A stretch of DNA of 41,007 nucleotides from a virus (UHGV-0067929), one strand, 5' to 3'. Positions 9,665 to 39,103 are shown, counted from the stretch's first letter. Notes: generated from the sequence alone by a model not told the origin. A program made the numbers and translations.

Positions 9665-9995
9665 ATCAGCAGCAGAGCGCAAAGCCGCTCAGAGAGCCAG
9701 ACAAGCTGCATCTGGTGTGCGTAAGCTGGAGATTGTGCTTGATGCTCAGGAAATTGAAATGCTGGAGCGTAACTGTGCCACGCGTCGCCCAGGGCGTGCG
9801 CCTTACGAATTTGGTGAGTATATAGCGTTACTGATCCGCCAGGATGATGCACGCGTGCGCGGGCGTATAAAATCGATCAGCAGAAAACGTTGCGGTAAGT
9901 GCGGCGAGAGAGTTCCAGTTAATTCATGCCCGTGTAATGGTGACTCGCAATGCTGGGTGACTAAAGGCTGGCATGAAACGAAATTAATAGTGTGA
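9654..9995 (+). CDS. hypothetical protein with C-terminal Cys cluster
   Basis: 113 aa; CGKCGERVPVNSCPCNGDSQC; stop overlaps the GTGACATGTCAC palindrome. Confidence 0.45.
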   Translation: MMAKSAAERKAAQRARQAASGVRKLEIVLDAQEIEMLERNCATRRPGRAPYEFGEYIALLIRQDDARVRGRIKSISRKRCGKCGERVPVNSCPCNGDSQCWVTKGWHETKLIV

Positions 9996-10003
9996 CATGT
10001 CAC
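9992..10003. repeat. 12-bp perfect palindrome GTGACATGTCAC (copy a)
   Basis: Module junction upstream of terminase. Confidence 0.6.
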
Positions 10004-12208: not shown

Positions 12209-12257
12209 TATCCTCTGATGAGGATAAAACAAAGCCAGCTCATCGGCTGGCTGTTTG
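12209..12257. terminator. bidirectional terminator region between terminase and moron gene
   Basis: Hairpins TATCCTC/GAGGATA and GCCAGC/GCTGGC separated by AAAACAAA, T-tract on each strand. Confidence 0.5.
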
Positions 12258-12268
12258 TGACATGTCAC
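12257..12268. repeat. 12-bp perfect palindrome GTGACATGTCAC (copy b)
   Basis: Junction after terminase, next to terminator hairpin. Confidence 0.6.
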
Positions 12269-12890: not shown

Positions 12891-12967
12891 TGGCGTGGCA
12901 TGCAGGATTCGAACCTGCGACCAACTGCTTAGAAGGCGGTTGCTCTGTCCAACTGAGCTAATGCCAC
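12891..12967 (-). tRNA. tRNA-Arg (anticodon UCU), phage-borne argU-like
   Basis: 77-nt cloverleaf read by hand: 7-bp acceptor stem GTGGCAT/ATGCCAC, D-arm TAGCTCAGTTGGACAGAGC, anticodon loop CTTCTAA, T-arm GCAGGTTCGAATCCTGC, CCA end; one C-A mismatch in anticodon stem. Confidence 0.8.
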
Positions 12968-22036: not shown

Positions 22037-22581
22037 TGTGCGATCCGGTTATTGCTGGTGGCGCAATGCTCGCCATGAGTGGCATTCAGGCATACACCCA
22101 GTACCAACAGGGAAAGTATGCCTCGAAGGTTGCAGAAGCGAACGCAGATATAGCCACAGCTCAGGCAAATGATGCAATAAACAGAGGTAACGCTGAAGCT
22201 GAGCAACGGCGCAGAGAGACCCGACAGCGGCTTGGTACACAGGCGGCGACAATGGGGGCTACCGGCGCTGATTTATCTACAGGTAACGCGCTGGATATAT
22301 TTGGCGACACTGCCCAGTTTGGCGCTCTTGATTCGCTGACGACGGTGAATAACGCGCAACGCGAGGCTTACGGTTATCAGGTTCAGGCTGCCAACTATAA
22401 AGCAGAAGCCAGTTCAGCCCGTAAACAGGGGAATGTGGGAGCAGCAACAACATTGCTCACTGCGCCTCTGAAGGCATACGGTGCGTACCAGATGTTTGGT
22501 GGGACGTGGAGTCCGTTTACTCAAAGCACTCCTGCGCCAATCGGGGCAGCAGCAGGAACCAGATTACCCGGAGGATTATAA
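22036..22581 (+). CDS. internal virion protein (T7 gp14-like)
   Basis: 181 aa; starts MC...GGAMLAMSGIQA like gp14 (MCWAAAIPIAISGAQA as recalled); Ala/Gln-rich. Confidence 0.5.
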   Translation: MCDPVIAGGAMLAMSGIQAYTQYQQGKYASKVAEANADIATAQANDAINRGNAEAEQRRRETRQRLGTQAATMGATGADLSTGNALDIFGDTAQFGALDSLTTVNNAQREAYGYQVQAANYKAEASSARKQGNVGAATTLLTAPLKAYGAYQMFGGTWSPFTQSTPAPIGAAAGTRLPGGL

Positions 22582-25094
22582 TGCCAGTCGTACCAACAGT
22601 ATCCGGACGTCAGGTTGAGAGTCGTGGAGTTCAGTCAGCAGGCTTGCAGACGTTTTCTCAGCAAGGTATTGGTGATGCTTTTGTTCGGGCAGGGACAGAG
22701 GCAATTGATGTTTTGGGGCAGGCAAAACAGCGTGCCAATATCGCTCTGGCTCAGGAGGCATCTCTTAACCTCAGTCAGATAAGCAGCGATCTGCTGAATA
22801 ATCCTGAAACAGGATTGCTTAACCTGAAAGGGAAAAATGCTATTGGAAAAGGCCATGAGTATACGCAGCAGTTTGATGCTCAGGTCGAACAACTGGCTAT
22901 GTCGCTGCCGGATGAACAGGCTCGTAATGCTTTCATGCAGCAGGCGCAGCAGCAGCGCATTCAGTTCACTACGCAGGCCGGGCGACACGAGATAGGGCAA
23001 ATTAATGCCTACGAAGAAGGCCAGTTTCAGGCGACACTGCTGAACAATGGTAAAAATGCCGCAGCATTGTATGGCGACAACGCCGCATACGTATTGGCTA
23101 ACAAGCAAACTTTCCAGCAAATTGAGGAGTACGGTGTTGCACATGGCTGGAGCAACGAGCAAATCCAGGCCAAGAAAATCGAGTTTAAAGAGAAGGTTGC
23201 TGATGCTGCATTGTCCCAGTGGTCGGCAAACAATGCGACCGCATTCATCCAAAGTAATGGCGAGTTAAGTGATACTGCTGCTGGAGCTCGCCGTGCTGTA
23301 GCAGATAGTGACTCTTCCGAGCGTGCCCGTGGCATACGCAACAATAACCCAGGAAATCTCGAATACAGCAAAACTAATCCGTGGGTAGGCCAGACCGGTG
23401 ATGATGGTCGATTTGCTAAATTCGAAACACCTGAACACGGGATTCGTGCATTAGGGCGGAACCTGATGTCGTATCAGAGGCAGGGTATTGATACCGTCAG
23501 CGAGATAATTAATCGCTGGGCACCGCCTGCTGATAAAAATGACACTATGTCGTATATCAAAGCAGTGTGCGAACAACTTGGCGTTTCTGCTGATGAGCCT
23601 CTCGATGCATCTAATCCTGATACCCTGAAGGCGCTTTGTGCAGCCATTATCCATCATGAGAACGGTAGCCAGCCATACAGTGATCAGCAGTTAACTGCTG
23701 GTGTCAGTGCAGCACTTGGTTTATCAACAATTCCAACCAACACCAAACGCTATACCGGTAATGCAGCATTCGATGCGGCATCTCCTGAGGCGCAGGCAAG
23801 TTTTATGCGACAGGCGGATCAACTGCGTCGGCAGCAGCAGGCTGAATATAAAACGATGATTGACAGCCAGGTTCGCGATGCGACAGCTGCGTATATGCGT
23901 GGCGTTGAATTTCCTAACCCACCTGGTGAGGCTGATTTTATTGCAGCTTATGGAGTAAGAGAAGGAAACCTGCGATATACCGAGTTCAGAAATACGCAAA
24001 TCGCCGGACAGTATATAGGCTCTTTCCGCAACATGCCGACAAGCAGCATTACAGCATATGTTGAGCAATTACGCCCGGATACTGGTGAGACAGGGGAGGG
24101 TTATGCGGCACGAGCCGCTCTTTATGACAACGTTGTGTCGGCTGCAAGTCAGGTGATAAAGCAGCGACAGGCTGATCCTGTACAGTTCTCTCTTGCCGCC
24201 GGACAGGCAAAGCCTATCGACATGAGCAATAAGGATAACTTTGGACAGAGCGTTGCCTTGCGTGCTGCTCAGGTCAGTGACCTTGCTAAGTCATATGGCA
24301 CTCCACTGACGTTCTTTTCCAAAGACGAGGCCAATCAGATCGGTGTTTTCTTTCGTGATGCGCCCGTTTCCCAACAGGCAGCATATCTCGATACCATCAG
24401 GCAGAACACTGGTGGTGGGCAGGTGTATATGTCAGCACTACAGCAGATCAGTGCCAACGCTCCATCTGCTGCCGTTGCCGGGATACTGATGGATAAGCCA
24501 GGTGGTATTTTGGCAGAAAAAAACTGGTTTAATCCGGATGTTTCCGTGTCTCCAGAAACCGCTGCGCAGACAATTCTTGCTGGCGCGGCGGCTCGTAAAG
24601 GTACTGATGACGCGAAAGGTATTCCGATGCCTAAAGATGCTGATCTTCGCCTTGAGTTTTCTGACATGGTGAAGGATGCATTTGCTGGTGATGCTCATGG
24701 GGCATCAATGGCATACGAGATCGCAAAGGACTATTACGCTGGTGTGATGGCGAAAAAAGGCGTGGTATCAGGCGAAATTGACAATGATATCTGGAAACAG
24801 GCTGTTAACGTAGCTACAGGTGGCGTGCATGACTATAACGGAATGGGGAATGTTCTTTTGCCGTGGGGAATGTCTGCAGAGCAATTCGATAAGCAGGTTA
24901 ATCAGGCTTGGAATGAACAAGTTGTTGGCACAGGGATAAAAACACCGCCTGGTCAGTATGGTTTGCAAAGTTACGGCGATAGTCAGTACCTGGTGAAACT
25001 TGGTACTGGTTATCTGCTAAAAGATGATGGTTCTCCCGTTGTTCTTGATCTGACACAGAAGCGTCAGAGATTCTCCGGAGATATTCCGCAATGA
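22581..25094 (+). CDS. internal virion / DNA-ejection protein
   Basis: 837 aa from ATG 22581 (TAATG coupling after GGAGG); large Gln/Ala-rich protein in gp15-equivalent position. Confidence 0.5.
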   Translation: MPVVPTVSGRQVESRGVQSAGLQTFSQQGIGDAFVRAGTEAIDVLGQAKQRANIALAQEASLNLSQISSDLLNNPETGLLNLKGKNAIGKGHEYTQQFDAQVEQLAMSLPDEQARNAFMQQAQQQRIQFTTQAGRHEIGQINAYEEGQFQATLLNNGKNAAALYGDNAAYVLANKQTFQQIEEYGVAHGWSNEQIQAKKIEFKEKVADAALSQWSANNATAFIQSNGELSDTAAGARRAVADSDSSERARGIRNNNPGNLEYSKTNPWVGQTGDDGRFAKFETPEHGIRALGRNLMSYQRQGIDTVSEIINRWAPPADKNDTMSYIKAVCEQLGVSADEPLDASNPDTLKALCAAIIHHENGSQPYSDQQLTAGVSAALGLSTIPTNTKRYTGNAAFDAASPEAQASFMRQADQLRRQQQAEYKTMIDSQVRDATAAYMRGVEFPNPPGEADFIAAYGVREGNLRYTEFRNTQIAGQYIGSFRNMPTSSITAYVEQLRPDTGETGEGYAARAALYDNVVSAASQVIKQRQADPVQFSLAAGQAKPIDMSNKDNFGQSVALRAAQVSDLAKSYGTPLTFFSKDEANQIGVFFRDAPVSQQAAYLDTIRQNTGGGQVYMSALQQISANAPSAAVAGILMDKPGGILAEKNWFNPDVSVSPETAAQTILAGAAARKGTDDAKGIPMPKDADLRLEFSDMVKDAFAGDAHGASMAYEIAKDYYAGVMAKKGVVSGEIDNDIWKQAVNVATGGVHDYNGMGNVLLPWGMSAEQFDKQVNQAWNEQVVGTGIKTPPGQYGLQSYGDSQYLVKLGTGYLLKDDGSPVVLDLTQKRQRFSGDIPQ

Positions 25095-26893
25095 GTTACT
25101 TTGGCCTTAATCCAGTAAACCAGAATCAGCAGCTTGACGAAGCAGCATCAAATCCAGTTGGCTTTAACAGCGATGTTGGTTTTTTCGACAATGCTGTAGG
25201 AGCGGCATTGTCTGGTTTGTACTCCGGGCTGGTGGCAAAGCCAGATCAGTTGCTCTGGGCAGGGATGGATAAAATCGTATCCCCGATTGCTCAGTTTGTT
25301 AACGAAAACACCTCGCTCAATGACACTTCAGTTTCATACATTGCCGAGCAGAGAAAACTAGCAGAGCAGCAGGTTAAGCGGCTGACGCCTGATGCCGCGA
25401 CAACCGGAACCGCCGGGCAGGTTCTTTATGGGTTGTTCGATATGGGCGGGCAGGCTGTTATCGGTACAACGCTCGGTGGTCCGGTCGGAGGTGCTGCGGC
25501 GGTAACTTCGCTACAGGGTTTTTCTGAGTTTGAACGGCTGACAGCACAGGGTGTTGATTTCAGGACGGCGCAGGAAGCGGGATTAGTGCAGGGTATTACT
25601 GCTGGTGCCGGAACACTGATCCCTATGAGCCTCGGGTTACGTGCTGGTGGTGCGCTGGCGGAAGGTGTGGCGGCTCAGCTTGCGCGGACGGGTGAAAGTT
25701 CAGTGCGACGCGCCGCAGCAACAGCAGTACGTGCAACGCCAGATATTGCCTATGCCGCAGGTACAAATATTGCGTTCGGTATGGCACAGCGTGGGCTTAC
25801 TGCAAAAACGCTTCGTGATGGTGGCTATAGCGAAATGGCTAACCAGTATGATGTGTTGGATCGACAGGCAATTGCTATTGATGCTGTTCTTGGGGTGGCG
25901 TTTGGTGGTGTCGGCAGATTTATTAACTCTCGCGGTGAGGCTACAAGCACCCCCAATTTTTCACCAGTTGATGTCGATGCTGCACTGGCGGCGAATGCCG
26001 CTCATCATGCTGAAATTGATATTGCTCCCGGCGTGCCGATCAACGTGCTTTCGCGTAATTCTCACATTCAGGCTCTGCGAAAAGCCATGTCTGATGTTAG
26101 CCAGGGGAGACCTGTAGACGTAGCCAGCATTGTTGAGTCTGCATCTTTCAGTGAAATTCCTGGGCGCAAGAATCTGCTGTCTCAGGCAGTTAATGAGGCT
26201 CTGTCATCTGTAGATGATGGAGTAACGGCGCGCGCTATCGAAAATCGGTTGCTTGAAGAACAGGCTGCGCAGCTTTTGCCTCGTGGCGATAGACAGGTTT
26301 ACCAGTCTGAAATCGCTAATAGCCAACGAATTATTGAAAATCTCACTGAACAGCGCGCACAAATTCTTGCAGAAGAGCCAACCGGTAGCGGTAAAGCTTT
26401 GTCTCGTGCTCGATCAGATAAACAGGCCAGACTTCGGGATATTGACCAACGAATCCGGCAGGCACAAGAACGCCTGGAATTTTCCCGTAACGCGTTGGCA
26501 CCGCATGAGCCTGGCGGTCAGTTTTTTGAAGCTCGAGCAGAACTGGCTCGGAGACAGCAGGCAGAAAGTGAACTTAATGCTCAGGCTGTTTCATTCTATA
26601 AAACAGCAGAGGTCAGGACGCCAGACGAAGTAGCTCCTTTTGAGCCCGGTAAGATATTGCAACAGACAGAACAAAAAATGATGGCAGATCCGGCAGGAGA
26701 TATTGATCTGCGTATAGCTGAAGACTCGCTGCTTGAATATCCGGACATGATAATCACCGTGCTGGATGATGATGGTAATCCACAATCGCGCAGCGCGCGT
26801 GAAGTACTGGATGAAGCGAACAGGGAAAGTGAGCAGGCAATACAGGATTCCAGCCTGTTTGATGTCGCTGTGGCGTGTTTCTTGAGAGGTTAA
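25091..26893 (+). CDS. internal virion / DNA-ejection protein
   Basis: 600 aa, ATGA-coupled; Gly/Ala-rich N-half. Confidence 0.45.
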   Translation: MSYFGLNPVNQNQQLDEAASNPVGFNSDVGFFDNAVGAALSGLYSGLVAKPDQLLWAGMDKIVSPIAQFVNENTSLNDTSVSYIAEQRKLAEQQVKRLTPDAATTGTAGQVLYGLFDMGGQAVIGTTLGGPVGGAAAVTSLQGFSEFERLTAQGVDFRTAQEAGLVQGITAGAGTLIPMSLGLRAGGALAEGVAAQLARTGESSVRRAAATAVRATPDIAYAAGTNIAFGMAQRGLTAKTLRDGGYSEMANQYDVLDRQAIAIDAVLGVAFGGVGRFINSRGEATSTPNFSPVDVDAALAANAAHHAEIDIAPGVPINVLSRNSHIQALRKAMSDVSQGRPVDVASIVESASFSEIPGRKNLLSQAVNEALSSVDDGVTARAIENRLLEEQAAQLLPRGDRQVYQSEIANSQRIIENLTEQRAQILAEEPTGSGKALSRARSDKQARLRDIDQRIRQAQERLEFSRNALAPHEPGGQFFEARAELARRQQAESELNAQAVSFYKTAEVRTPDEVAPFEPGKILQQTEQKMMADPAGDIDLRIAEDSLLEYPDMIITVLDDDGNPQSRSAREVLDEANRESEQAIQDSSLFDVAVACFLRG

Positions 26894-26898
26894 ATTAA

Positions 26899-29373
26899 AT
26901 GAGACAGGAATGTATACAAGCGGTCCAGCAGGCGGCGCAGCGCACGTTAACGGCGCGAGAAATACAGAACATTGAAGACCGCATTTATCGAAATATGCGC
27001 TCCATTGCTCGTGATGACCCGATGTCGTGGAGACAACTTTCCGAATCAGAGCGGCTATATCGAGCAGCACAATTGGCATCTGAAGAATTACAGCGAGAAG
27101 CGGCATTAAAGAAACGTCGTGTGGCTCTCACTATAGCCGCGCGTCAGAGATTGGATAAATTTATCAATAGCTATCAAGGGGCTGATGGGAAACTTGGAGC
27201 TCTTAACCGTACTATAGCTTTTAATGCAGACGGTAAATCTAATTTCCTCTCTGTTGAATCCAGAACAAAAGCCACCCGTGATTATGCATTGAGTCAATTG
27301 CAGGAGGCATTCGAAGCAGTTGATCCTCGCTTTTTTGGTCTGTTTGAAGATGAAGCGGGCGTACGTGACCTGGTATATGAAATGCGGGGGCAAAATACTG
27401 GCAATGCTAAAGCAAGAAAAGGTGCTAAGGCGTGGAGAGAAGTTACAGAGCTGCTGCGCCGCCGGTTTAATGATGCTGGTGGGGACATTGGCTATCTCGA
27501 AAACTGGGGGATCCCTCAACATCATTCTATGGAAAAGGTTGGGGCGGTATCAAAGGATAAGTGGGTTGGCGATGTTATAGGTAAGCTGGATCGCAAATAT
27601 TATACCCGAGCCGATGGACAACTGATGAACGATGCCGAGTTGTCTGCATTTCTTGGAGAGGCTTATAACACGATCGCTACTGGTGGGCTGAATAAGCTTA
27701 CTGATACCGGAATGCGAATTTCCGGCGCACGTGCTAACCGTGGTAATGCATCACGACAGATACATTTCAAAGATGCAGATTCCTATCTCCAATATCAACA
27801 ACTTTATGGTGATCGCTCTCTATGGGAAATCATGGTCGGTCACTTGGAAGGTATCAGTAAAGATATTGCTCTGGTGGAAACATATGGTCCAAACCCCGAT
27901 CATGTTTTCCGCTCCCTTCTTGATCAGGTTAAGGCAGAAACGGCAACAGCTAACCCGAGTAAAACCGGTAGCGTCGAGCGTCTGGCGAACAAAACAGAGA
28001 ACTTGTACAACTTTATTTCCGGAAAAACACAGCCTGTAGCGAATCCGCACATCGCGCGATGGTCTGACAATATCCGCAACTGGCTGGTTGCCAGCAGACT
28101 CGGATCCGCGTTGCTGTCATCGTTCTCTGATCTTGGAACCATGTATCTGTCTGCGAAGGTTACCAACCTTCCAATGAACCAGTTATTTCGCAACCAGCTT
28201 GAAGCTATGGACCCAACGAACCGTACTGAGCTTGCGCGGGCGCGCCGCGCTGGCCTGGCGATGGAATCTCTACTTGGCAGCGTTAACCGCTGGGCGATGG
28301 ATAATATGGGGCCGTCTGTGTCTCGTTGGGCGGCAACGGCGGTAATGCGTGCCAGTGGGCTTACAGCATGGTCAGATGCGCACAAGCGCGCCTATGGCGT
28401 AACCATGATGGGAAGCCTGGGAGAAGTAGTGTCACGGACACCAGACCTTCGTAGCCTCGATGACTCTGATTTTCGTATCCTGAAAAGTAAAGGGATTACT
28501 GACACAGACTGGAGCGTATGGAAGCTGGCGCAACAGGAGGACTGGGGGAACGGTAATAATACGATGCTGACACCGGAAAGCATTATGCGTATCCCTGATT
28601 CAGCAGTTAAACATCTTGGTGAGCCTGAACGCGTGAAATTTGAGGCAATGCGTAAACTGCTCGGTGCCGTAACTGAAGAAGTTGATATGGCTGTTATTAC
28701 ACCGGGCGCACGTGAGCAGATGTTCGTAGGGTCTGGTCTTCAGCGTGGAACATGGAAAGGTGAATTAACGAGAAGTGTTTTCCTGTTTAAATCGTTCCCT
28801 ATCTCGGTTGTTATGCGTCACTGGTCACGCGCTATGGGTATGCCGTCTGCTGGTGGGCGTGCAGCATATATAGCAACGTTTTTAGCAAGCACAACCATGC
28901 TTGGTGCTCTTTCCATGCAGATTACTGATCTTATTAATGGGAGAAATCCAAAGGAAATGACCGGTGACCACATGGTTAAATTCTGGATAAATGCATTTTT
29001 AAAAGGTGGCGGGGCTGGGTTGTACGGTGATTTTCTTTTCTCTGACCACACTAGGTACGGGAGCGGCGCGCTGGCGTCGATGCTTGGCCCGGTAGCTGGT
29101 CTGGTTGATGACGTAGTGAAGATAGCTCAGGGCATACCGCTAAATGCTGTGGAAGGGAAGAGTGAGCAGACTGGTGGTGATCTGGTTAAGCTGGGGAAGG
29201 GGCTGATGCCAGGTGCGAATCTCTGGTACTTGAAGGCGGCTCTCGATCATATGATCTTTAACCAGATGCAGGAGTATTTTTCACCAGGCTATTTGCGTAA
29301 AATGGAGCAACGTTCGAAGAAAGAGTTTAACCAGACATACTGGTGGCGACCTCAGGATGTCACTCCGCAATAA
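26899..29373 (+). CDS. internal virion / DNA-ejection protein
   Basis: 824 aa, last gene of the ejection-protein block. Confidence 0.45.
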   Translation: MRQECIQAVQQAAQRTLTAREIQNIEDRIYRNMRSIARDDPMSWRQLSESERLYRAAQLASEELQREAALKKRRVALTIAARQRLDKFINSYQGADGKLGALNRTIAFNADGKSNFLSVESRTKATRDYALSQLQEAFEAVDPRFFGLFEDEAGVRDLVYEMRGQNTGNAKARKGAKAWREVTELLRRRFNDAGGDIGYLENWGIPQHHSMEKVGAVSKDKWVGDVIGKLDRKYYTRADGQLMNDAELSAFLGEAYNTIATGGLNKLTDTGMRISGARANRGNASRQIHFKDADSYLQYQQLYGDRSLWEIMVGHLEGISKDIALVETYGPNPDHVFRSLLDQVKAETATANPSKTGSVERLANKTENLYNFISGKTQPVANPHIARWSDNIRNWLVASRLGSALLSSFSDLGTMYLSAKVTNLPMNQLFRNQLEAMDPTNRTELARARRAGLAMESLLGSVNRWAMDNMGPSVSRWAATAVMRASGLTAWSDAHKRAYGVTMMGSLGEVVSRTPDLRSLDDSDFRILKSKGITDTDWSVWKLAQQEDWGNGNNTMLTPESIMRIPDSAVKHLGEPERVKFEAMRKLLGAVTEEVDMAVITPGAREQMFVGSGLQRGTWKGELTRSVFLFKSFPISVVMRHWSRAMGMPSAGGRAAYIATFLASTTMLGALSMQITDLINGRNPKEMTGDHMVKFWINAFLKGGGAGLYGDFLFSDHTRYGSGALASMLGPVAGLVDDVVKIAQGIPLNAVEGKSEQTGGDLVKLGKGLMPGANLWYLKAALDHMIFNQMQEYFSPGYLRKMEQRSKKEFNQTYWWRPQDVTPQ

Positions 29374-29382
29374 GGAACAACA

Positions 29383-29796
29383 ATGAAGGAATTATTGCTG
29401 TTATCGGTATTTTTGATATCCGCTTGCTCGACATCCTATGATGTTTATGACGGTGTTGATAAGGCATATTGCGACAAAGTTAAAATGGATTTTTCTCTTG
29501 CCAAGACGGCGAAGGATAGTTGTATTGATCACTACGTCAAGACTTATACCAAGCCAGCATCATCGGCATCTGATATTGCTGAAGGTGCTGTGTTTGAGTG
29601 TAACAAGGTGATATCCATCGCAGCGAGTTCTTCATACGATGCTGCTGTATGTGCAATGGCTGAAAGAAACGGCATGTCAGTGCAAAAAGTTAATAGCATG
29701 ATAAACAGTAATGACGAAGCCAAAATAAGAACTGATATCAGCTCGGTGAAAAAAGATGCCATGAACAGAGTTGTAAAATATCAGTCATCTTTATAA
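29383..29796 (+). CDS. lipoprotein (moron; candidate superinfection-exclusion factor)
   Basis: Signal peptide with lipobox LISAC; low GC compared with flanks; five further Cys in mature part. Confidence 0.6.
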   Translation: MKELLLLSVFLISACSTSYDVYDGVDKAYCDKVKMDFSLAKTAKDSCIDHYVKTYTKPASSASDIAEGAVFECNKVISIAASSSYDAAVCAMAERNGMSVQKVNSMINSNDEAKIRTDISSVKKDAMNRVVKYQSSL

Positions 29797-29799
29797 GTC

Positions 29800-29811
29800 G
29801 TGACATGTCAC
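29800..29811. repeat. 12-bp perfect palindrome GTGACATGTCAC (copy c)
   Basis: Junction between lipoprotein gene and Bro island, next to terminator hairpin. Confidence 0.6.
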
Positions 29812-29812
29812 A

Positions 29813-29835
29813 GGCCGCAAAAGCGGCCTTGTTTT
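29813..29835 (+). terminator. intrinsic terminator after lipoprotein gene
   Basis: GGCCGC-AAAA-GCGGCC then TTGTTTT. Confidence 0.6.
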
Positions 29836-29853
29836 AACGAATGCCACCGCCCG

Positions 29854-30540
29854 TCAGAAGAACCCTGCTTTGTCGTTGATGTACTCCGCGTGCGTCTGGA
29901 TATCACGCAGGCATTTGTTCACACCGACGATGTAGCAGAACATGGTGGTCAACTCCGCCGCCGCGCCCGATACGTCGTGCCCGTCGTCCTGTAACTGGTT
30001 CAGCAGATTCATCAGCAGTGAGTTCTCCGTCAGGCCGAGAACACCAGACGGCGAGTGAATCAGGCTGCGGTAGCCGGGCTTCAGTGGGGCGCTGTAGGTT
30101 TTGTTCTCTATCTTCATTGCCTGCATCACTGCTGATGCTGTGGCGTTGGCTACTTGGTCGGCAACCATCTTTATGCGTTCTTCCTGCGGGAGCGAGTTTT
30201 TAATGTAACTTCCGGTGCGGCGGATCTGAGGAAGAACCTCACCTGTAACCCATTTACGAAAGCGGTATGGGATAGTGCCTGGTGTCACCGCATCGCGGCA
30301 GCGGAGGATCAGTGTGTAGAGGCCTGACTCGTTGATAATATTGGTTTCGCCTTGACGGCCTAAGTTAAATTTAGCCCTTTCATCATCATCAAGAGATTTT
30401 ATTGACATAGTGGGGTTTGTCAGTTGAAGAGCTTTAATAACGTCTTTGGCAACAAACCAAGGATTTCCATCAATAACAATGGCTCGAATGGTTGCTTCTG
30501 ATTCAAAATGAAAAACAGATGGGGTTACGTTAGCAGTCAT
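29854..30540 (-). CDS. Bro-N domain antirepressor-like protein, paralogue 1
   Basis: Start set to ATG 30540 by alignment with paralogues (MTANVTPSVFHFE...IRAIVIDGNPWFVAKDV Bro-N signature); constant C-terminal module shared with 31767-32459 and 33543-34238. Confidence 0.75.
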   Translation of the reverse strand: MTANVTPSVFHFESEATIRAIVIDGNPWFVAKDVIKALQLTNPTMSIKSLDDDERAKFNLGRQGETNIINESGLYTLILRCRDAVTPGTIPYRFRKWVTGEVLPQIRRTGSYIKNSLPQEERIKMVADQVANATASAVMQAMKIENKTYSAPLKPGYRSLIHSPSGVLGLTENSLLMNLLNQLQDDGHDVSGAAAELTTMFCYIVGVNKCLRDIQTHAEYINDKAGFF

Positions 30541-30770
30541 AGTGATCACCTTTGTAGTTAGGTTAATCACCACTACCGACGCCAATCGGTTGGTGGTGAA
30601 CTGTGCAGGGTTGGCGTAACCGGCTACAAAGGACCCGGCGCACCTTTCGGTGCCCCCACACAGCCCACCATAGAATAGGTGCGCTTTACACATAAAAAAA
30701 CCGCTTATGCGGCATATGTGCCTCTGTAGTAATCCGGGACGCCAATCCCGGCACTGGATTTTGCCAGTGC
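30541..30770 (-). ncRNA. structured leader RNA of Bro paralogue 1 (candidate c4-like regulatory RNA)
   Basis: Reverse-complement copy of the same leader; elements at 30721-30729 (mimic), 30624-30632 (anti-SD), 30549-30557 (SD). Confidence 0.45.
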
Positions 30771-30805
30771 CCGATTACTATGGCACAAGAGGAGTGCGAT
30801 GTAAA

Positions 30806-30822
30806 TTTACCGCAAGGGTAAT
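30806..30822. promoter_or_regulatory. operator-like palindrome TTTACCGCAAGGGTAAT at Bro paralogue 1 leader promoter
   Basis: Abuts -35 TTTACA (minus strand). Confidence 0.5.
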
Positions 30823-30968
30823 AATAGACACAGGTGGATATTAAAATCAACCATATTTGGTTAAGGTGTATAAAAGAGCCACCAGCGAGAAATTGTACCG
30901 CGATGTAAAATAACGAGCATCTGCTGGCTTACAACCAGCGATGTTTCAAATTTGTCACTACTATCAAC

Positions 30969-31367
30969 GTGCCATTCCACGGCGCAGAACTTTATGTTGT
31001 CAATCACAACGGAGAACCGTACACCCCAATGAAACCTATCGTTGAGGGAATGGGTATGGATTGGGCTGCTCAATTTGTTAAATTAAAACAGAGATTTGTC
31101 AAAGGTATTTCGGAAATCGAAATACCTTCTGCTGGCGGTAAACAGTTAATGATATGCCTTGCCTTTCGTAAGTTTGCGGCTTGGCTTTCAAGCATTCAGC
31201 CAAACAAAGTCCGTCCTGAAATCCGCGACAAGGTAATCCAGTATCAGGAAGAGTGTGACGATGTGCTCTACGAGTACTGGACTAAAGGCCATGTGGTTAA
31301 CCCACGCAAAGCTAAAAAGGCGTTGCCGGGTAAAATAACCACTGAACAGCAGGAGGTTTACACTTAA
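30969..31367 (+). CDS. phage antirepressor-like domain protein (Ant N-terminal-type), possibly 5'-truncated
   Basis: FHGAELYVVNHNGEPYTPMKPIVEGMGMDW...RKFAAWL...QEECDDVLYEYW; only a GTG start with no SD, no in-frame ATG upstream. Confidence 0.4.
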   Translation: MPFHGAELYVVNHNGEPYTPMKPIVEGMGMDWAAQFVKLKQRFVKGISEIEIPSAGGKQLMICLAFRKFAAWLSSIQPNKVRPEIRDKVIQYQEECDDVLYEYWTKGHVVNPRKAKKALPGKITTEQQEVYT

Positions 31368-31391
31368 CACTTGATTACATTAACACAAAAT

Positions 31392-31408
31392 ATTACCTTA
31401 AAGGTAAT
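31392..31408. promoter_or_regulatory. operator-like palindrome ATTACCTTAAAGGTAAT
   Basis: Perfect arms. Confidence 0.55.
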
Positions 31409-31484
31409 ATCTTGCTTTCAGGTGATCAAGCGTTAAACGCAATCAACCAAATACGGTTGATTTTAATGTTTCTTCGCGCTTATC

Positions 31485-31501
31485 ATTACCTTTACGGTAA
31501 A
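31485..31501. promoter_or_regulatory. operator-like palindrome ATTACCTTTACGGTAAA at Bro paralogue 2 leader promoter
   Basis: Abuts -35 TTTACA at 31502-31507. Confidence 0.55.
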
Positions 31502-31530
31502 TTTACATCGCACTCCTCTTGTGCCATAGT
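31502..31530 (+). promoter_or_regulatory. sigma70-like promoter of Bro paralogue 2 leader
   Basis: TTTACA - 17 nt - (TGc)CATAGT extended -10. Confidence 0.45.
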
Positions 31531-31536
31531 AATCGG

Positions 31537-31766
31537 GCACTGGCAAAATCCAGTGCCGGGATTGGCGTCCCGGATTACTACAGAGGCACATATGCCGCAT
31601 AAGCGGTTTTTTTATGTGTAAAGCGCACCTATTCTATGGTGGGCTGTGTGGGGGCACCGAAAGGTGCGCCGGGTCCTTTGTAGCCGGTAAGACCAACTCT
31701 GCACAGTTCACCACCATCTGATTGGTCTCAGCGGTGGTGATTAACCTAACTACAAAGGTGATCGCC
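31537..31766 (+). ncRNA. structured leader RNA of Bro paralogue 2 (candidate c4-like regulatory RNA)
   Basis: From predicted TSS: two GC hairpins (31536-31573), SD mimic CTACAGAGG (31578-31586), hairpin+U7 (31594-31613), GAAA-capped hairpin (31654-31667), anti-SD CCTTTGTAG in a loop (31675-31683), 8-bp hairpin (31708-31740), SD CTACAAAGG (31750-31758). Confidence 0.45.
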
Positions 31767-32459
31767 ATGAATACCAAACCTTCCATCTTTTCCTTTGAGT
31801 CATCCTGCCAGATCCGTATGTTCATGATTGACGGAGAACCTTGGTTTGTCACCAAAGATGTGTGCAATGCTTTGAATATTGATGTTACACAAGCGAGAAA
31901 ACTTGATAAAAAAGGCTGGAACAAAAAGGGGCTGTATTCAATACAGACCCCTGGTGGAATACAAGAACTATCCATAGTTTCAGAATCAGGTCTCTACATC
32001 CTTATTCTGCGTTGCAAAGAGGCAATGACTGAGGGAACGAGAGCATTCAGATTTCTTGAATGGGTTACAGGTGAGGTTCTTCCTCAGATCCGCCGCACCG
32101 GAAGTTACATTAAAAACTCGCTCCCGCAGGAAGAACGCATAAAGATGGTTGCCGACCAAGTAGCCAACGCCACAGCATCAGCAGTGATGCAGGCAATGAA
32201 GATAGAGAACAAAACCTACAGCGCCCCACTGAAGCCCGGCTACCGCAGCCTGATTCACTCGCCGTCTGGTGTTCTCGGCCTGACGGAGAACTCACTGCTG
32301 ATGAATCTGCTGAACCAGTTACAGGACGACGGGCACGACGTATCGGGCGCGGCGGCGGAGCTGACCACCATGTTCTGTTACATCGTCGGTGTGAGCAAGT
32401 GCCTGCGTGATATCCAGACCCACGCGGAGTACATCAACGACAAGGCAGGGTTCTTCTGA
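31767..32459 (+). CDS. Bro-N domain antirepressor-like protein, paralogue 2
   Basis: MNTKPSIFSFESSCQIRMFMIDGEPWFVTKDV Bro-N signature; SD CTACAAAGG 9 nt upstream; C-terminal ~145 aa near-identical to paralogues. Confidence 0.75.
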   Translation: MNTKPSIFSFESSCQIRMFMIDGEPWFVTKDVCNALNIDVTQARKLDKKGWNKKGLYSIQTPGGIQELSIVSESGLYILILRCKEAMTEGTRAFRFLEWVTGEVLPQIRRTGSYIKNSLPQEERIKMVADQVANATASAVMQAMKIENKTYSAPLKPGYRSLIHSPSGVLGLTENSLLMNLLNQLQDDGHDVSGAAAELTTMFCYIVGVSKCLRDIQTHAEYINDKAGFF

Positions 32460-32495
32460 CGGCGGCGGCACAGGGATGTGCCTTTAAATAATCCT
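32063..32495 (+). repeat. ~0.43-kb repeat R2 (3' half of Bro paralogue 2), inverted relative to R1/R3
   Basis: Reverse complement of 33543-33960 region with few mismatches. Confidence 0.8.
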
Positions 32496-32529
32496 GTACG
32501 ATTGCAGACCGGGGGGTGAATAGAGTACT

Positions 32530-32546
32530 ATTACCTTACGGGTGAT
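32530..32546. promoter_or_regulatory. operator-like site ATTACCTTACGGGTGAT
   Basis: Upstream of leader peptide/membrane protein unit. Confidence 0.45.
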
Positions 32547-32582
32547 CCATAGCGATTAGGCACCGATACAGGAGGAGCCCAC

Positions 32583-32615
32583 ATGAGAAAATTTGACGAG
32601 TACGAAGGCGTTTAA
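32583..32615 (+). CDS. candidate 10-codon leader peptide (MRKFDEYEGV)
   Basis: ATG 5 nt after GGAGGAG, stop 18 nt before an 8-bp GC hairpin with U-tract. Confidence 0.3.
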   Translation: MRKFDEYEGV

Positions 32616-32633
32616 CATTCGGATAGTTTAATG

Positions 32634-32657
32634 ACGGGGCCATCAGGCCCCGTTTTC
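32634..32657 (+). terminator. attenuator-like hairpin between leader peptide and membrane protein gene
   Basis: ACGGGGCC-ATCA-GGCCCCGT then TTTTC. Confidence 0.5.
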
Positions 32658-32674
32658 ATGTCTGGAGACAGTTT

Positions 32675-33214
32675 GTGTTAAGTGAAGAAATGCAATTTGC
32701 CATGGCTGTGGCTCAAATCGTAAGTGCAGTCGCGGTTTCGCTTGGCTTGTTCATAGCTATCGCTACTATTATTTATAATGTAAATACAGCGAGAAAAGTA
32801 CACACTTCAGTATTCCTTGGTGAAAGCAGGTTTGATGTAGATTATAAGAAAGGCCTATCTACTATGCGCCGCATTCACGAGTCGAACAAATCATTCCGCT
32901 CTTATATGTATCCAAGCAATGGGCAGGCTGATCTTACGGATGAAGAAAAGATAGAGAAGAGAGAAATAATTTACTGTCTAGGTTTCTACGAACGCATGGC
33001 TGTGAGCGTGAAGCGGAAAACTTATGATGAGACCATGATTAAGGAAGTATTTTACAGCTCCGTTGTAAATAACTATCAGATTGCGCTACCTCTTATACAA
33101 GCTATTAGAGAAAAAGAAAACATAAACACATATTTTAAAGAATATGAATGGTTGGCCACACGATGGAAGGATTGTCCATTGAAGGATAAATCCCCGTGGT
33201 ACAAGTTTTGGTAA
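32675..33214 (+). CDS. membrane-anchored protein of unknown function (AT-rich moron)
   Basis: N-terminal hydrophobic helix (AMAVAQIVSAVAVSLGLFIAIATIIY) then ~140-aa soluble domain; markedly AT-rich coding region; followed by terminator. Confidence 0.6.
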   Translation: MLSEEMQFAMAVAQIVSAVAVSLGLFIAIATIIYNVNTARKVHTSVFLGESRFDVDYKKGLSTMRRIHESNKSFRSYMYPSNGQADLTDEEKIEKREIIYCLGFYERMAVSVKRKTYDETMIKEVFYSSVVNNYQIALPLIQAIREKENINTYFKEYEWLATRWKDCPLKDKSPWYKFW

Positions 33215-33236
33215 GCCCGCAGCGCGGGCTTTTTTG
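33215..33236 (+). terminator. intrinsic terminator after membrane protein gene
   Basis: GCCCGC..GCGGGC then TTTTTTG. Confidence 0.6.
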
Positions 33237-33307
33237 TGGATGAAACAAAAGTCAGTGCTACACTCATTGACGCCACATTGAGATGGCTTATAGATGGAAA
33301 TCTCACA

Positions 33308-33469
33308 ATGAAAAAAGCATTTGCTGCACTGTTCGTTTTGTTGTCTCTGGTGGCTTCAACTCAGGCCTCTGCTGGTCGTTGTCAGCACGACAGCGACACT
33401 GCTGCTGACGGCTCCCGCTGCGGCGGGCGTTCTGCGGATTCCCGCCCGGGTGGCGGTGGCATTCGTTAA
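33308..33469 (+). CDS. small secreted Cys-containing peptide (53-aa precursor)
   Basis: Canonical signal peptide MKKAFAALFVLLSLVASTQASA with AxA site; promoter-like TTGACG-N16-TATAGA upstream. Confidence 0.45.
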   Translation: MKKAFAALFVLLSLVASTQASAGRCQHDSDTAADGSRCGGRSADSRPGGGGIR

Positions 33470-33491
33470 AAACAAGGCCGCGAAAGCGGCC
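33468..33491 (-). terminator. terminator downstream of Bro paralogue 3
   Basis: GGCCGC-GAAA-GCGGCC followed on minus strand by TTGTTTTT. Confidence 0.5.
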
Positions 33492-34021
33492 TGTGACATG
33501 TCACGATAGTTCCGTTTTGCACATCCCTGTGCCGCCGTTCTGTCAGAAGAACCCTGCCTTGTCGTTGATGTACTCCGCGTGGGTCTGGATATCACGCAGG
33601 CACTTGCTCACACCGACGATGTAACAGAACATGGTGGTCAGCTCCGCCGCCGCGCCCGATACGTCGTGCCCGTCGTCCTGTAACTGGTTCAGCAGATTCA
33701 TCAGCAGTGAGTTCTCCGTCAGGCCGAGAACACCAGACGGCGAGTGAATCAGGCTGCGGTAGCCGGGCTTCAGTGGGGCGCTGTAGGTTTTGTTCTCTAT
33801 CTTCATTGCCTGCATCACTGCTGATGCTGTGGCGTTGGCTACTTGGTCGGCAACCATCTTTATGCGTTCTTCCTGCGGGAGCGAGTTTTTAATGTAACTT
33901 CCGGTGCGGCGGATCTGAGGAAGAACCTCACCTGTAACCCATTTACGAAAGCGGTAGGGGATAGTTCCTGGTGTCACAGCATCGCGGCAGCGGAGGATCA
34001 GTGTGTAGAGGCCTGACTCGG
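33492..34021 (-). repeat. ~0.5-kb repeat R3 (3' half and 3' UTR of Bro paralogue 3)
   Basis: Direct repeat of R1, 3.7 kb apart. Confidence 0.8.
33493..33504. repeat. 12-bp perfect palindrome GTGACATGTCAC (copy d)
   Basis: Other flank of the Bro island core, next to terminator hairpin. Confidence 0.6.
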
Positions 34022-34238
34022 AGATGATGATCGATTCTTGCTCACCGCCAGGGGTGTCGGTTGAAGCGACGCCCTTCTCATCATCATCAAGTTTTCGAAC
34101 AGCATCTCGATGGTTTGCTATGCCTATAGCCCGACAAACATCTGAAGCGATAAACCATGGCTCACCATTAATGACGATTACTCGTATATCGCCTTGGGAT
34201 TCGAAAGAAAAAATGGACGTGCTTTTTGTAGCTGTCAT
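33543..34238 (-). CDS. Bro-N domain antirepressor-like protein, paralogue 3
   Basis: MTATKSTSIFSFESQGDIRVIVINGEPWFIASDV; SD CTAAAAGG; constant C-terminal module. Confidence 0.75.
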   Translation of the reverse strand: MTATKSTSIFSFESQGDIRVIVINGEPWFIASDVCRAIGIANHRDAVRKLDDDEKGVASTDTPGGEQESIIISESGLYTLILRCRDAVTPGTIPYRFRKWVTGEVLPQIRRTGSYIKNSLPQEERIKMVADQVANATASAVMQAMKIENKTYSAPLKPGYRSLIHSPSGVLGLTENSLLMNLLNQLQDDGHDVSGAAAELTTMFCYIVGVSKCLRDIQTHAEYINDKAGFF

Positions 34239-34468
34239 AGTGGTTACCTTTTAGTCTGGTTAATCACCACTACCGACGCCAATCGGTTGGTGGTGAACTG
34301 TGCAGGGTTGGCGTAACCGGCTAAAAGGACCCGGCGCACCTTTCGGTGCCCCCACACAGCCCACCATAATACGAATGTGGCCGTGCTATACGCATAAAAA
34401 AACCGCTTGCGCGGTGAATGCGCCTTTTAGTAATCCGGGACGCCAATCCCGGCACTGGATTTTGCCAG
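34239..34468 (-). ncRNA. structured leader RNA of Bro paralogue 3 (candidate c4-like regulatory RNA, variant specificity)
   Basis: Same architecture; elements at 34423-34430 (mimic CTAAAAGG), 34321-34328 (anti-SD CCTTTTAG), 34247-34254 (SD CTAAAAGG), all changed in concert. Confidence 0.45.
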
Positions 34469-34506
34469 TGCCTGATTACTATGGCACAAGAGGAGTGCGA
34501 TGTAAA

Positions 34507-34523
34507 TTTACCGCAAAGGTAAA
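34507..34523. promoter_or_regulatory. operator-like palindrome TTTACCGCAAAGGTAAA at Bro paralogue 3 leader promoter
   Basis: Same position relative to leader as 30806 and 31485 copies. Confidence 0.5.
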
Positions 34524-34553
34524 TATAAGCACTCCGCTTGGTAATTGCAAACC

Positions 34554-35007: not shown

Positions 35008-37023
35008 ATGACGGTCTCAACCGAAGTTGACCACAACGAATACACAGGTAACGGCGTTACGACATCATTTCCGTACACCTTCCGTATTTTCAAAAAATCC
35101 GACCTGGTTGTTCAGGTGTCTGACCTGAACGGGAACGTAACAGAATTGGTTCTGGATACCGGTTATACGGTAACTGGGGCGGGCACTTATAGTGGCGGTT
35201 CTGTTGTTCTTCCGTCGCCGCTTGCTGCTGGATGGCGAATTACGATAGATCGTGTGCTTGATGTAGTGCAGGAGACAGACCTTCGCAATCAGGGAAAGTT
35301 TTTCCCCGAAGTGCATGAAGATGCCTTTGACTACCTGACGATGCTGATCCAGCAATGTTTTGGGTGGTTCAGACGTGCATTGATGAAACCATCTTTGCTT
35401 GCAAAATATTACGATGCAAAGCAAAACAGAATTTCTAACCTTGCAGATCCATCACTTGAGCAGGACGCTGTAAATAATCGCTCAATGCGTAATTATGTCG
35501 ATGCTGCAATCGCCGGAGTTGTTGGTGGTTTTGGTTGGTTTATTCAGTATGGTTCAGGCGCGGTATATAGAACGTTTCAGGATAAGATGCGGGATACTGT
35601 CAGTGTTCTTGACTTTGGCGCTAAAGGTGATGGAGTCACAAATGATACAGATGCTTTCATTGCCGCGGCATCTGCTTCGCCACAAGGTGTTTATGTTCCT
35701 GATGGCACGTATTTATTGCCGGAAGATATTAATGGAAGATTTTATGGCCCAGGAAAAATAATTAAAGAGACAGGAGCGGAACGAATTCCGTTTACCAATG
35801 TAGCTCAGTCTCATAGCAACCTTATTTTAGGTTATGATGCCGCAAAAAATTACACTGACTCTGGTAAAGGTAATCAATTGGTTTTGCTTGGACCAAGTTC
35901 TGGTCGCAACATAACTAGCGGCACTAACACAATCGTGGTTGGTGTGGGTGGTTTGTCAGGAGATACTCTAGAAGATGATCTTACAGATAAGTCGCCATTT
36001 TCTGGAACAGAGATTATCAGTATAGGTATTAATGCTTTGAAGAAAGCCACCACTGGAAATAACATGATTGGTATTGGCAGGGATGCGCTAAACGAGTGTA
36101 AGGATGGTAGGTTCAATGTTGCAGTTGGTATGTCAGCTTTGCAGCAACTCCATTCTGGAGAAGCTAATGTTGCAATAGGACGCTCTGCAGGAATGCGTAC
36201 TGGCATCTACACAGACCCTCAAGGTGTACGTCTTGGGTATAATAAATGTAATGGAAATACCCTTATTGGTAATGCAGCTGGTAGGGAGTTAAAGCAAGGT
36301 GATCATAACACAGCTATAGGTAATGGAGCATTGCGAGGAGTATCATCAACAGAGAACCCATACACTGGGACTCTCACAGGTAATTTTAATACAGCAATTG
36401 GTGTTGATGCTCTCAATTCCCTATCCTCAGGTGACCTGAATGTTATGATAGGAGCAAGAGCAGGAAGAAAATTACCAACTGGAAATGGTAATATTTTTAT
36501 AGGTCCAGATGCTGGTGCCGGAATATCAGAAGATACCTCCAATAAATTCATTGTAAATAATCACAAAGGATTGCCTTTTTTAGAAGGTGTTATGGGAGGC
36601 GCACAAGCGGAAGATAACTATTTGCGTATAGATGGTAGTGTTGCCCCCCAGATAGATAATCAAAGAACTTGTGGTCAATCTAGTCGTAGATGGCAAACTG
36701 TCTTTGCAACTAATGGTGTAATACAAACATCTGACGGTAGATGTAAAGATGTGTATGAGATATCTACGGCAGAGTATAGTGCAGGGCTAGAATTAGCCAT
36801 TAGCATGATAAAGTTTAAATGGACAGATGCAGAATCTGATAAGTATCACTTCGGATGTATGGCTCAAGAAGTAATGCTGATTATGGAGAAATATAATCTT
36901 AACCCTACAGACTATTCTCTGGTTACTTATGATAAAGAATCGGATATGTATGGTGTAAATTACGCTGACTTATCTTGTTTCTGTATTGCCGCTATGTCTA
37001 AACATTTATTACGAAGTGCGTAA
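35008..37023 (+). CDS. tailspike protein (conserved N-terminal particle-binding domain, beta-helix, C-terminal peptidase S74 intramolecular chaperone)
   Basis: DFGAKGDGVTNDTDAF pectate-lyase-like motif; C-terminal SDGRCKDV...FKW...HFGCMAQEV...VNYADL chaperone-domain pattern. Confidence 0.85.
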   Translation: MTVSTEVDHNEYTGNGVTTSFPYTFRIFKKSDLVVQVSDLNGNVTELVLDTGYTVTGAGTYSGGSVVLPSPLAAGWRITIDRVLDVVQETDLRNQGKFFPEVHEDAFDYLTMLIQQCFGWFRRALMKPSLLAKYYDAKQNRISNLADPSLEQDAVNNRSMRNYVDAAIAGVVGGFGWFIQYGSGAVYRTFQDKMRDTVSVLDFGAKGDGVTNDTDAFIAAASASPQGVYVPDGTYLLPEDINGRFYGPGKIIKETGAERIPFTNVAQSHSNLILGYDAAKNYTDSGKGNQLVLLGPSSGRNITSGTNTIVVGVGGLSGDTLEDDLTDKSPFSGTEIISIGINALKKATTGNNMIGIGRDALNECKDGRFNVAVGMSALQQLHSGEANVAIGRSAGMRTGIYTDPQGVRLGYNKCNGNTLIGNAAGRELKQGDHNTAIGNGALRGVSSTENPYTGTLTGNFNTAIGVDALNSLSSGDLNVMIGARAGRKLPTGNGNIFIGPDAGAGISEDTSNKFIVNNHKGLPFLEGVMGGAQAEDNYLRIDGSVAPQIDNQRTCGQSSRRWQTVFATNGVIQTSDGRCKDVYEISTAEYSAGLELAISMIKFKWTDAESDKYHFGCMAQEVMLIMEKYNLNPTDYSLVTYDKESDMYGVNYADLSCFCIAAMSKHLLRSA

Positions 37024-38005: not shown

Positions 38006-38624
38006 ACAATTCCAGCGAGCTGCTGGTATCAGCGATGTGCTGGCCGCACGCTGGTTCTCGCATATAACTTCTGCGATGAAAGAGTTTGGTATCAGAAAAC
38101 CCGAAGATCAGGCAATGTTTATTGCTCAGGTCGGGCATGAGTCTGGAGGCTTCACCCGGTTGCAGGAAAATTTCAACTACAGCGTCAGCGGACTGGCGAG
38201 CTTTGTCAGGACTGGACGCCTCACCCAGGGACAGGCTAATGCACTGGGGCGCCGTGCTGGTGAACCACCATTGCCACTTGAGCGCCAGCGCGCGATCGCA
38301 AATCTGGTTTACAGCAAACGCATGGGTAACAATGCTCCCGGCGATGGCTGGAATTACCGTGGGCGCGGGCTTATCCAGATTACCGGTTTGAATAACTATC
38401 GTGACTGCGGAAACGGTCTGAAAGTTGACCTGCTGGAGAATCCTGAACTGCTGGCGCAGGACGAATACGCGGCTCGTAGCGCGGCGTGGTTCTTTGCCAG
38501 CAAAGGATGCATGAAGTATACCGGTGATATTGCACGTGTAACTCTGATTATCAATGGTGGCCGGAACGGCATCGACGACCGGCGCGCGCGGTACGTCACT
38601 GCCAGTAAGGTGCTGGCTATATGA
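37995..38624 (+). CDS. endolysin, glycoside hydrolase family 19 type
   Basis: [12 protein letters not shown]...[12 protein letters not shown] motifs characteristic of GH19 chitinase-like lysozymes. Confidence 0.85.
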
Positions 38625-39103
38625 TCTGGGCATTCGTAAAAGCATATTGGAAACAACTGATTATCGTGGTGATGCTTGCTGCTCTGTTCATCGTCGGAGT
38701 GGTTGCCTGGAATATACACGGCAGTCGCCAGTACGATGCCGGGTATGCGCAGGCGGAAGAAGACCGCAAAGACGAAGAAGACAAAGTTCGTCAGTACTAC
38801 GAACAGGAGAAAGTGACCAATGAACGTGAAGCGCAGCAGAGAATCGACCAGGCGCGCAATGATGCTCTTGATGCTGCCGCTCGCGCTGGCAGGTTGCAGC
38901 AACAACTCTTTGCCATCCGTGAGCAGCTCAGGCAGTATAACGCCATTGTCGGCGCTGGGACGTCAGCCGCAGACACCGGAGTTTTGCTTGCCGACGTGCT
39001 CAGCAAATCTCTCGAGAGAAACAGACAACTGGCAGAGTATGCTGACCGGGCAGCCGAAGCCGGAAGAGTCTGCGAAAAACAGTATGACACCCTGACAAGA
39101 TAG
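38621..39103 (+). CDS. Rz: i-spanin (Rz-like)
   Basis: N-terminal TM helix then long charged coiled-coil region; ATGA-coupled to endolysin; embeds a +1-frame lipoprotein ORF. Confidence 0.7.
38859..39095 (+). CDS. Rz1: o-spanin (Rz1-like lipoprotein) embedded in Rz
   Basis: [13 protein letters not shown] lipobox, Pro-rich mature peptide, entirely within Rz in another frame. Confidence 0.6.
   Translation: MMLLMLPLALAGCSNNSLPSVSSSGSITPLSALGRQPQTPEFCLPTCSANLSRETDNWQSMLTGQPKPEESAKNSMTP

Follow-up and report, generated by a model that had tools for sequence, protein, structure and literature searches.

Phage T5 provides the example of a small periplasmic outer-membrane lipoprotein, Llp, that can shut down phage entry (PMC9586334). 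Llp and the Cor-type proteins of T5, T1 and phi80 are phage lipoproteins of small size that have a lipobox and disulfide(s). The llp gene adjoins the gene of the receptor-binding protein and has its own early promoter; proteins of this class act on a TonB-dependent receptor, which for Llp is FhuA. In P22, SieA blocks the conduit of the ejection proteins gp20 and gp16; it is an accessory protein, present in 22 of 66 P22-like phages, and exists as several types with less than 30% identity to each other (PMC10883804). SieA is a polytopic inner-membrane protein encoded on the opposite strand under its own promoter. Lipobox proteins inside structural gene clusters that have been tested for exclusion are known from other coliphages, the mEpimmI group, where plasmid expression of Lpp021 and Lpp010 demonstrated the effect (PMC11893012); these phages are siphoviruses using OmpA or LamB. 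The lipoprotein Ltp of the Streptococcus thermophilus phage TP-J34 is reported to block DNA injection and not adsorption (PMC3952083, PMC10883804). Lambda Bor represents a different kind of function, since this prophage-encoded outer-membrane lipoprotein moron of ~100 aa, transcribed as its own unit beside the lysis genes, confers serum resistance.

The locus described here lies in a window of 41,007 nucleotides (UHGV-0067929; the window is the whole stretch of DNA that was analysed), which represents an E. coli prophage of the epsilon15/phiV10 type (Uetakevirus), inserted beside yfgI. At 29383..29796 (+) it encodes a 137-aa lipoprotein precursor, whose niche is that of sieA, between the last ejection gene and the antirepressor/tailspike (immI) region of a temperate O-antigen-specific podovirus. 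The order in the window is 824-aa gene, lipoprotein gene, Bro-N/Ant genes and tailspike, and that in P22 is 7, 20, 16, sieA, mnt/arc/ant and 9. The product is, unlike SieA, a predicted outer-membrane lipoprotein, and the two share no sequence similarity (hhalign probability 0.1%). It differs from Llp in size (~123 aa mature against 61 aa), in the position of its gene, which follows the gp17-like ejection gene in the late operon rather than adjoining a receptor-binding protein gene, and in belonging to an O-antigen-specific phage; hhalign with the family alignment aligns only residues 2–18 of the signal peptide. Lpp021 and Lpp010 are alike by description (PMC11893012), being lipobox proteins of several sequence types inside the structural cluster of temperate coliphages, but belong to phages of another morphology with protein receptors. 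Ltp is likewise a lipoprotein, though of a Gram-positive host and with no Pfam Ltp or Foldseek match to the window protein, and hhalign with Bor again aligns only the signal peptide (probability 7%). The proteins in the identical position in related phages, phiV10p21, epsilon15 gp18 and phiv142-3 Orf12, have the same Shine-Dalgarno and palindrome-terminator junctions and are also small envelope proteins, but they are inner-membrane hairpins of 46–98 aa with 2–3 transmembrane (TM) segments, no lipobox and unrelated sequences. The kind of protein is familiar, a prophage accessory envelope protein; its sequence and predicted fold make it a new, uncharacterised family.

The lipoprotein and its family

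The gene starts with ATG and is preceded, at a distance of 6 nt, by the Shine-Dalgarno sequence AAGGA (29372–29376, +), which overlaps the TAA codon that ends the 824-aa gene before it, so that the intergenic gap is only 9 nt. Its GC content of 39.1% is below that of the window (48.9%) and of the virion block (50.6%). The preliminary description had presented it as a low-GC gene for a 137-aa protein with the lipobox LISAC, placed after the ejection-protein block, and all of these features are borne out. The N-terminus reads MKELLLLSVFLISAC and fits the classical pattern of a lipoprotein: K2 lies in the n-region, the h-region is LLLLSVFL, there is no charged residue at -10 to -5, and a signal peptide of residues 1–14 leads into the lipobox L11-I12-S13-A14-C15 (29383..29427, +). 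The pattern applied was of the PROSITE PS51257 type, which requires a positively charged n-region, an uncharged hydrophobic h-region and [LVI][ASTVI][GAS]C with the cysteine within about residues 15–35. It is present in the window protein and in five diverged homologues (P0016, P0018, P0020, P0021 and P0022), and the Providencia homologue carries the name 'lipoprotein' at NCBI. The assignment of the 137-aa protein as a lipoprotein is therefore strongly supported by its sequence, and Cys15 is predicted to become the lipidated N-terminus of a mature part of ~123 aa (pI 6.8), which has no TM helix beyond the signal peptide. In E. coli, a serine behind the lipidated cysteine directs Lol transport to the outer membrane. 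Position +2 is Ser16 in the window protein, Ser or Thr in all six members and never Asp, and by this rule Lol sorting would place the protein in the outer membrane.

The protein contains cysteines at 15, 30, 47, 73 and 90. Beyond the lipobox there are four (C30, C47, C73 and C90) and not the five counted previously. Their spacing of 17/25–26/17 is common, together with the lipobox, to members down to 26% identity, and the four cysteines are typical of what would be an oxidised periplasmic protein. The AlphaFold2 model is an all-helical bundle of six helices with a pLDDT of 86.7 overall and values above 90 in most of the mature part. C30 and C47 are located on helix 1, C73 at the start of helix 3 and C90 within it, an arrangement in which two inter-helix disulfides may staple antiparallel helices, as would fit the equal spacing of 17 residues.

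Because the lipobox and cysteines are kept down to 26% identity and dN/dS is 0.05, the reading frame is taken to be a real, well-conserved gene and not a chance feature. The dN/dS value derives from the comparison of the window with a Citrobacter allele (32 synonymous and 8 non-synonymous differences) and points to purifying selection on the family. The only PHROGs match is phrog_8691 (E=1.6e-91), of unknown function. In Pfam, no family matches at E<=0.01, including Bor, TraT and the Ltp family; the sole NCBIfam match, CC_3452, reaches 16 bits against a cut-off of 40; and PADLOC-DB v2 returns no defence-protein family at E<=0.1. By hhalign, the mature domain has no match to Llp, Bor or SieA, and no homology to a characterised exclusion protein was found. 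Foldseek comparison of the AlphaFold2 model with the PDB and BFVD libraries yields generic helical bundles only (E>=0.25), and a sequence-profile search of the PDB designed helical repeats only (E>0.1). The family was found by tblastn in none of 50,697 records of isolated phages (INPHARED), and a scan of species-representative genomes confirmed no relative. A word-indexed search of 5.8 billion proteins retrieved only near-identical proteins from E. coli, Enterobacter and Citrobacter and a homologue with 54% identity from Cedecea, and four remote members of 137–142 aa came in addition from an exhaustive profile search over 1.84 billion representatives.

The diverged members occupy two kinds of neighbourhoods. 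The Cedecea gene lies in a similar prophage, 2 nt after an 848-aa gp17-like gene, and the metagenomic member P0022 (26% identity) stands at the end of a block of T7_gp14, SLT, 573-aa and 855-aa genes. This latter locus (L016), from the most diverged phage with a family member, is packed with envelope proteins, the gene being preceded by that of a secreted Cys-rich 191-aa protein (1133–1708, +) and followed on the opposite strand by that of a 253-aa four-TM protein (2258–3019, -). In the Providencia subfamily (P0020, 26% identity), the gene stands alone at 8001–8420 of the chromosomal loci L011–L013, outside phages, within integrase/AlpA/DUF3987 elements, where the genes around it encode GajA/GajB (Gabija), type I and type III restriction-modification systems, PDC-S25 (SIR2) and a DruE-like helicase. 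Sequence context thus identifies one branch of the family as defence-island cargo, an association limited to this 26%-identical subfamily, and since the subfamily sits outside phages, a protein of this type would be able to work without virion genes.

A polymorphic slot at the end of the ejection operon

The ejection block encodes a core protein of the T7_gp14 family, a protein of 862 aa that contains a lytic transglycosylase (SLT) region, a 600-aa protein and the 824-aa protein encoded at 26899..29373 (+); the homologues of gp15–gp17 in it span 22506–29373. This last internal-virion gene is a homologue of phiV10p20 and epsilon15 gp17, as indicated by the phiV10 annotation and by phrog_684 ('virion structural protein', E=0). 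The lipoprotein gene has the orientation of the late operon, and a consensus scan for sigma-70-like promoters on the plus strand over the 2.5 kb upstream (26800–29383), which weak or non-canonical sites could escape, found none; expression in the lysogen is therefore unsupported, and the late operon apparently has this gene as its final cistron. The Uetakevirus lysogen paper on ZX5 is without transcriptome data. On the 3' side, Bro-N/antirepressor genes on the opposite strand are followed by the tailspike gene (35008–37023), 5 kb downstream of the lipoprotein gene, and by a complete lysis cassette of holin, endolysin, Rz (38621–39103) and embedded Rz1 (38820–39095, lipobox LAGC). Because this cassette, 9 kb away, contains a separate Rz and an Rz1 o-spanin, the candidate identity of the lipoprotein as the spanin of the phage was rejected.

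Between 37023 and 37297, the window has no O-antigen-modifying gene after the tailspike, where phiV10 has oac and epsilon15 a wzy-like polymerase and an inhibitor; the prophage seems to be without the seroconversion type of exclusion.

Identity of the window to phiV10 and phiv142-3 ends at the Shine-Dalgarno sequence, the left cassette junction, and identity to phiV10 returns at a perfect 12-bp palindrome, GTGACATGTCAC (29800..29811), 3 nt after the stop codon. The same slot is filled in phiV10 (phiV10p21), SPN1S, 65FD and PAS61 by a 46-aa two-TM protein, in phiv142-3 by Orf12 of ~98 aa with three TM segments, and in epsilon15 by gp18, of 64 aa with two. The gene had been described as inserted; the slot is never empty in these relatives, so the event is better read from the sequences as cassette replacement in a swap-prone slot than as simple insertion. 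Among 80 IMG/VR loci that share the gp17 C-terminus, ~22 encode the lipoprotein, ~31 the 3-TM protein, ~15 the 46-aa 2-TM protein and 8 a short 1-TM protein of roughly 43–62 aa; two IMG/VR loci have the lipoprotein in a truncated 120-aa version. In 5426 complete E. coli genomes, the gp17 3' end was found in 320, the phiV10p21-type gene in 53 and the lipoprotein gene in 22. Accessory distribution (22 against 320 genomes), deviant composition (GC 39% against 49–51%) and sharp junctions are what is expected of a moron; as a transcription unit, however, the gene has no promoter of its own in the scan and uses the terminator of the backbone.

The junctions are remarkably uniform. All 28 loci with close homologues (95–100% identity) have the same Shine-Dalgarno junction, and the exact palindrome lies 3 nt past the stop codon in 27, the exception being a single mismatch; the palindrome junction persists among these loci even where the sequence beyond it differs. 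The 453 bp from the start codon to the end of the terminator are 100% identical to those of E. coli strain P4, as are, separately, the 483 bp just upstream, and the two prophages diverge downstream of the lipoprotein gene. A strict linkage between slot occupant and gp17 C-terminal allele was considered and rejected, as an allele of 99–100% identity also occurs with the 46-aa and 98-aa occupants.

When the E. coli and Citrobacter prophages are compared (26899–29796 against 5517–8414 of L006), dS is ~0.5 for the lipoprotein gene, whereas synonymous sites are saturated in the gp17-like gene beside it (dS estimated at >5). This difference suggests that the lipoprotein cassette was exchanged more recently than its gp17-like neighbour. 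E. coli GPEC1258 (NZ_CM142782.1) has two matches to the lipoprotein gene and two to the gp17 3' end, and probably holds two such prophages in one cell.

Possible functions of the lipoprotein

Envelope-level exclusion of incoming phages appears to be the likeliest job of the lipoprotein, a plausible reading for which the evidence is circumstantial and to which we give somewhat less than an even chance. The slot between the last ejection gene and the antirepressor/tailspike region is the sieA position of P22, and all other slot occupants are small membrane proteins. The polymorphism of the slot, the synteny and the defence-island association somewhat strengthen this reading, and Llp and the tested lipoproteins of the mEpimmI phages serve as precedents. 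The analogy is weakened by the orientation of the gene, which, unlike that of sieA, follows the late operon, by the negative promoter scan and by the missing similarity of the mature domain to Llp, Bor and SieA. The two gene copies in GPEC1258 argue against absolute homotypic exclusion, since this strain probably holds two such prophages.

If exclusion is the function, the lipoprotein would be anchored in the outer membrane, face the periplasm and act at the envelope against an incoming phage, presenting a compact helical bundle, stapled by two disulfides, on a tether of ~8 residues. It may interfere with the trans-envelope DNA-delivery conduit of the ejected core proteins as this emerges under the outer membrane, or else obstruct an outer-membrane protein on which irreversible binding or ejection depends. 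As the gene appears to be the last cistron of the late operon, protection may operate mainly during lytic growth, a 'lytic conversion' like that of T5 Llp, which would block superinfection and the wasteful ejection of progeny into debris. Such a late role is at least as likely as expression in the prophage state, although low-level expression in the lysogen is possible. The lipoprotein gene would then belong to a set of envelope-protein cassettes that can replace each other behind the ejection genes of epsilon15-like phages. A more ambitious version would make this a hypervariable exclusion locus in which the lipoprotein family is one allele class and the first outer-membrane-anchored, periplasm-facing blocker of a short-tailed-phage conduit, recruited also into Providencia defence islands, with the palindrome and terminator as the swap junction; taken together, these propositions are rather doubtful.

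Were exclusion the true function, a structurally new lipoprotein family would join the short list of Gram-negative phage entry blockers, and there would be a predictable slot for mining such genes in a common E. coli/Salmonella prophage group. It would also matter for forecasting which phages a lysogen is susceptible to, as with STEC or Salmonella strains against which O-antigen-specific phages, of the Uetakevirus type or others, are directed, and would help in studying how core proteins pass through the envelope once ejected. Otherwise, this is an ordinary uncharacterised prophage accessory gene.

An unlikely alternative is a host-fitness or virulence moron of the Bor type, in which an outer-membrane lipoprotein alters a host trait such as serum or bile resistance, adhesion or envelope stress tolerance, and not phage entry. 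Bor itself shows that an outer-membrane lipoprotein of a phage can serve a purpose other than a phage function, and the low GC content, the patchy accessory spread in prophages of E. coli, Enterobacter, Citrobacter and Cedecea, the many carrier strains that are animal or clinical isolates and the stand-alone copies in Providencia genomic islands are all in keeping with it. The resemblance to Bor, however, ends with the signal peptide, Pfam gives no Bor or TraT match, and the proteins that fill the slot elsewhere, tiny hairpins of the inner membrane, are improbable as virulence factors. Lysogenic-conversion genes need expression from the prophage, for which no promoter of the gene's own was detected, and the island neighbours in Providencia are anti-phage systems rather than virulence genes.

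A late envelope protein with a role in the phage's own lytic cycle, tuning lysis or outer-membrane breakdown or aiding release, would suit a gene that closes the late operon only 9 nt behind its neighbour and for which no separate promoter was found, and this position is kept in phages whose family member has 26% protein identity. Nevertheless, such a role is quite improbable, given that the gene is absent from most relatives and from all sequenced isolated Uetakeviruses (tblastn, 50,697 phage records), unrelated proteins replace the lipoprotein in relatives, a complete holin, endolysin, Rz and Rz1 cassette is present elsewhere in the window, and homologues occur outside phages in the Providencia islands.

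Less probable still is a periplasmic immunity or inhibitor protein directed against a peptidoglycan hydrolase, e.g. the SLT domain of the 862-aa protein ejected by an incoming phage, or against a bacteriocin or T6SS effector. A small, membrane-tethered periplasmic domain with predicted disulfides could serve in this way, its gene lies two genes downstream of that for the SLT-type transglycosylase protein, and T4 Sp, which acts on the gp5 lysozyme, offers a parallel. Yet Pfam and PDB searches revealed no sequence or fold similarity to Ivy, MliC, PliC or other inhibitors, and the other proteins of the slot have hardly any part in the periplasm. Finally, that the gene is non-functional, a chance ORF or decaying remnant, could be argued from the lack of an annotated function anywhere and from the two truncated IMG/VR versions, but is hardly credible in view of the dN/dS of 0.05, the conservation over the full length in four genera and also in remote homologues, where lipobox and cysteines do not vary, the confident AlphaFold2 model and the good Shine-Dalgarno sequence.

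The palindrome, the terminator and neighbouring repeats

The palindrome at 29800–29811, which forms the right slot-cassette junction, is followed directly by a rho-independent terminator (29812..29835, +), AGGCCGC-AAAA-GCGGCCT plus TGTTTT, which lies between convergent genes and ends the late/ejection operon. Its GC-rich hairpin has a 7-bp stem (29812–29829, then TTGTTTT), and a 66-nt stretch containing it folds as RNA with -17.3 kcal/mol. Both elements do follow the gene, as was initially noted; they belong, however, to the conserved phage backbone and not to the cassette. The same terminator element is annotated in phiV10 and epsilon15.

Four exact copies of the 12-mer are present in the window, where ~0.002 would be expected for a given 12-mer in 41 kb. 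The second (9992..10003) lies where the gp49-like regulator gene (9654–9995) ends, upstream of terS, the third (12257..12268) directly after the terL terminator, and the fourth (33493..33504) in an inverted copy of a 38-nt palindrome and terminator module (29798–29835 and 33469–33506). Three of the positions, the end of the gp49-like gene, the site after the terL terminator and the site after the slot gene, are syntenic in epsilon15, phiV10 and the P4 prophage. The copies are found at 2142, 19517 and 39612 in epsilon15 (L129), and at 2262 and 19493 and across the record ends in phiV10 (L021). Every copy lies within ~0–50 nt of a rho-independent terminator. From this distribution, the palindrome is read as a conserved backbone element rather than part of the cassette. 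A protein might bind to it and act on the terminators that the late transcript must pass, in regulator or termination control, or it may be a sequence that joins modules.

The palindrome is unannotated in these phages, and a full-text literature search found no mention of the 12-mer. As an operator of the prophage repressor it was rejected, the annotated (predicted) operators of epsilon15 being ATTACC-N5-GGTAAT.

Two further regions lie close to copies of the palindrome. The copy after terL, with the terL terminator, forms the left boundary of an interval between terL and the portal gene (12273–12967, -) that contains a 139-aa reverse-strand gene and a tRNA-Arg(tct). Beyond the slot, the region 29850–34550 comprises three Bro-N/antirepressor modules (29854–30693, -; 31722–32459, +; 33543–34238, -), which share direct and inverted repeats of 300–535 nt with 90–98% identity, including the inverted copy of the palindrome and terminator. 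The region from the slot to the tailspike is more simply arranged in strain P4, whose lipoprotein gene is identical.
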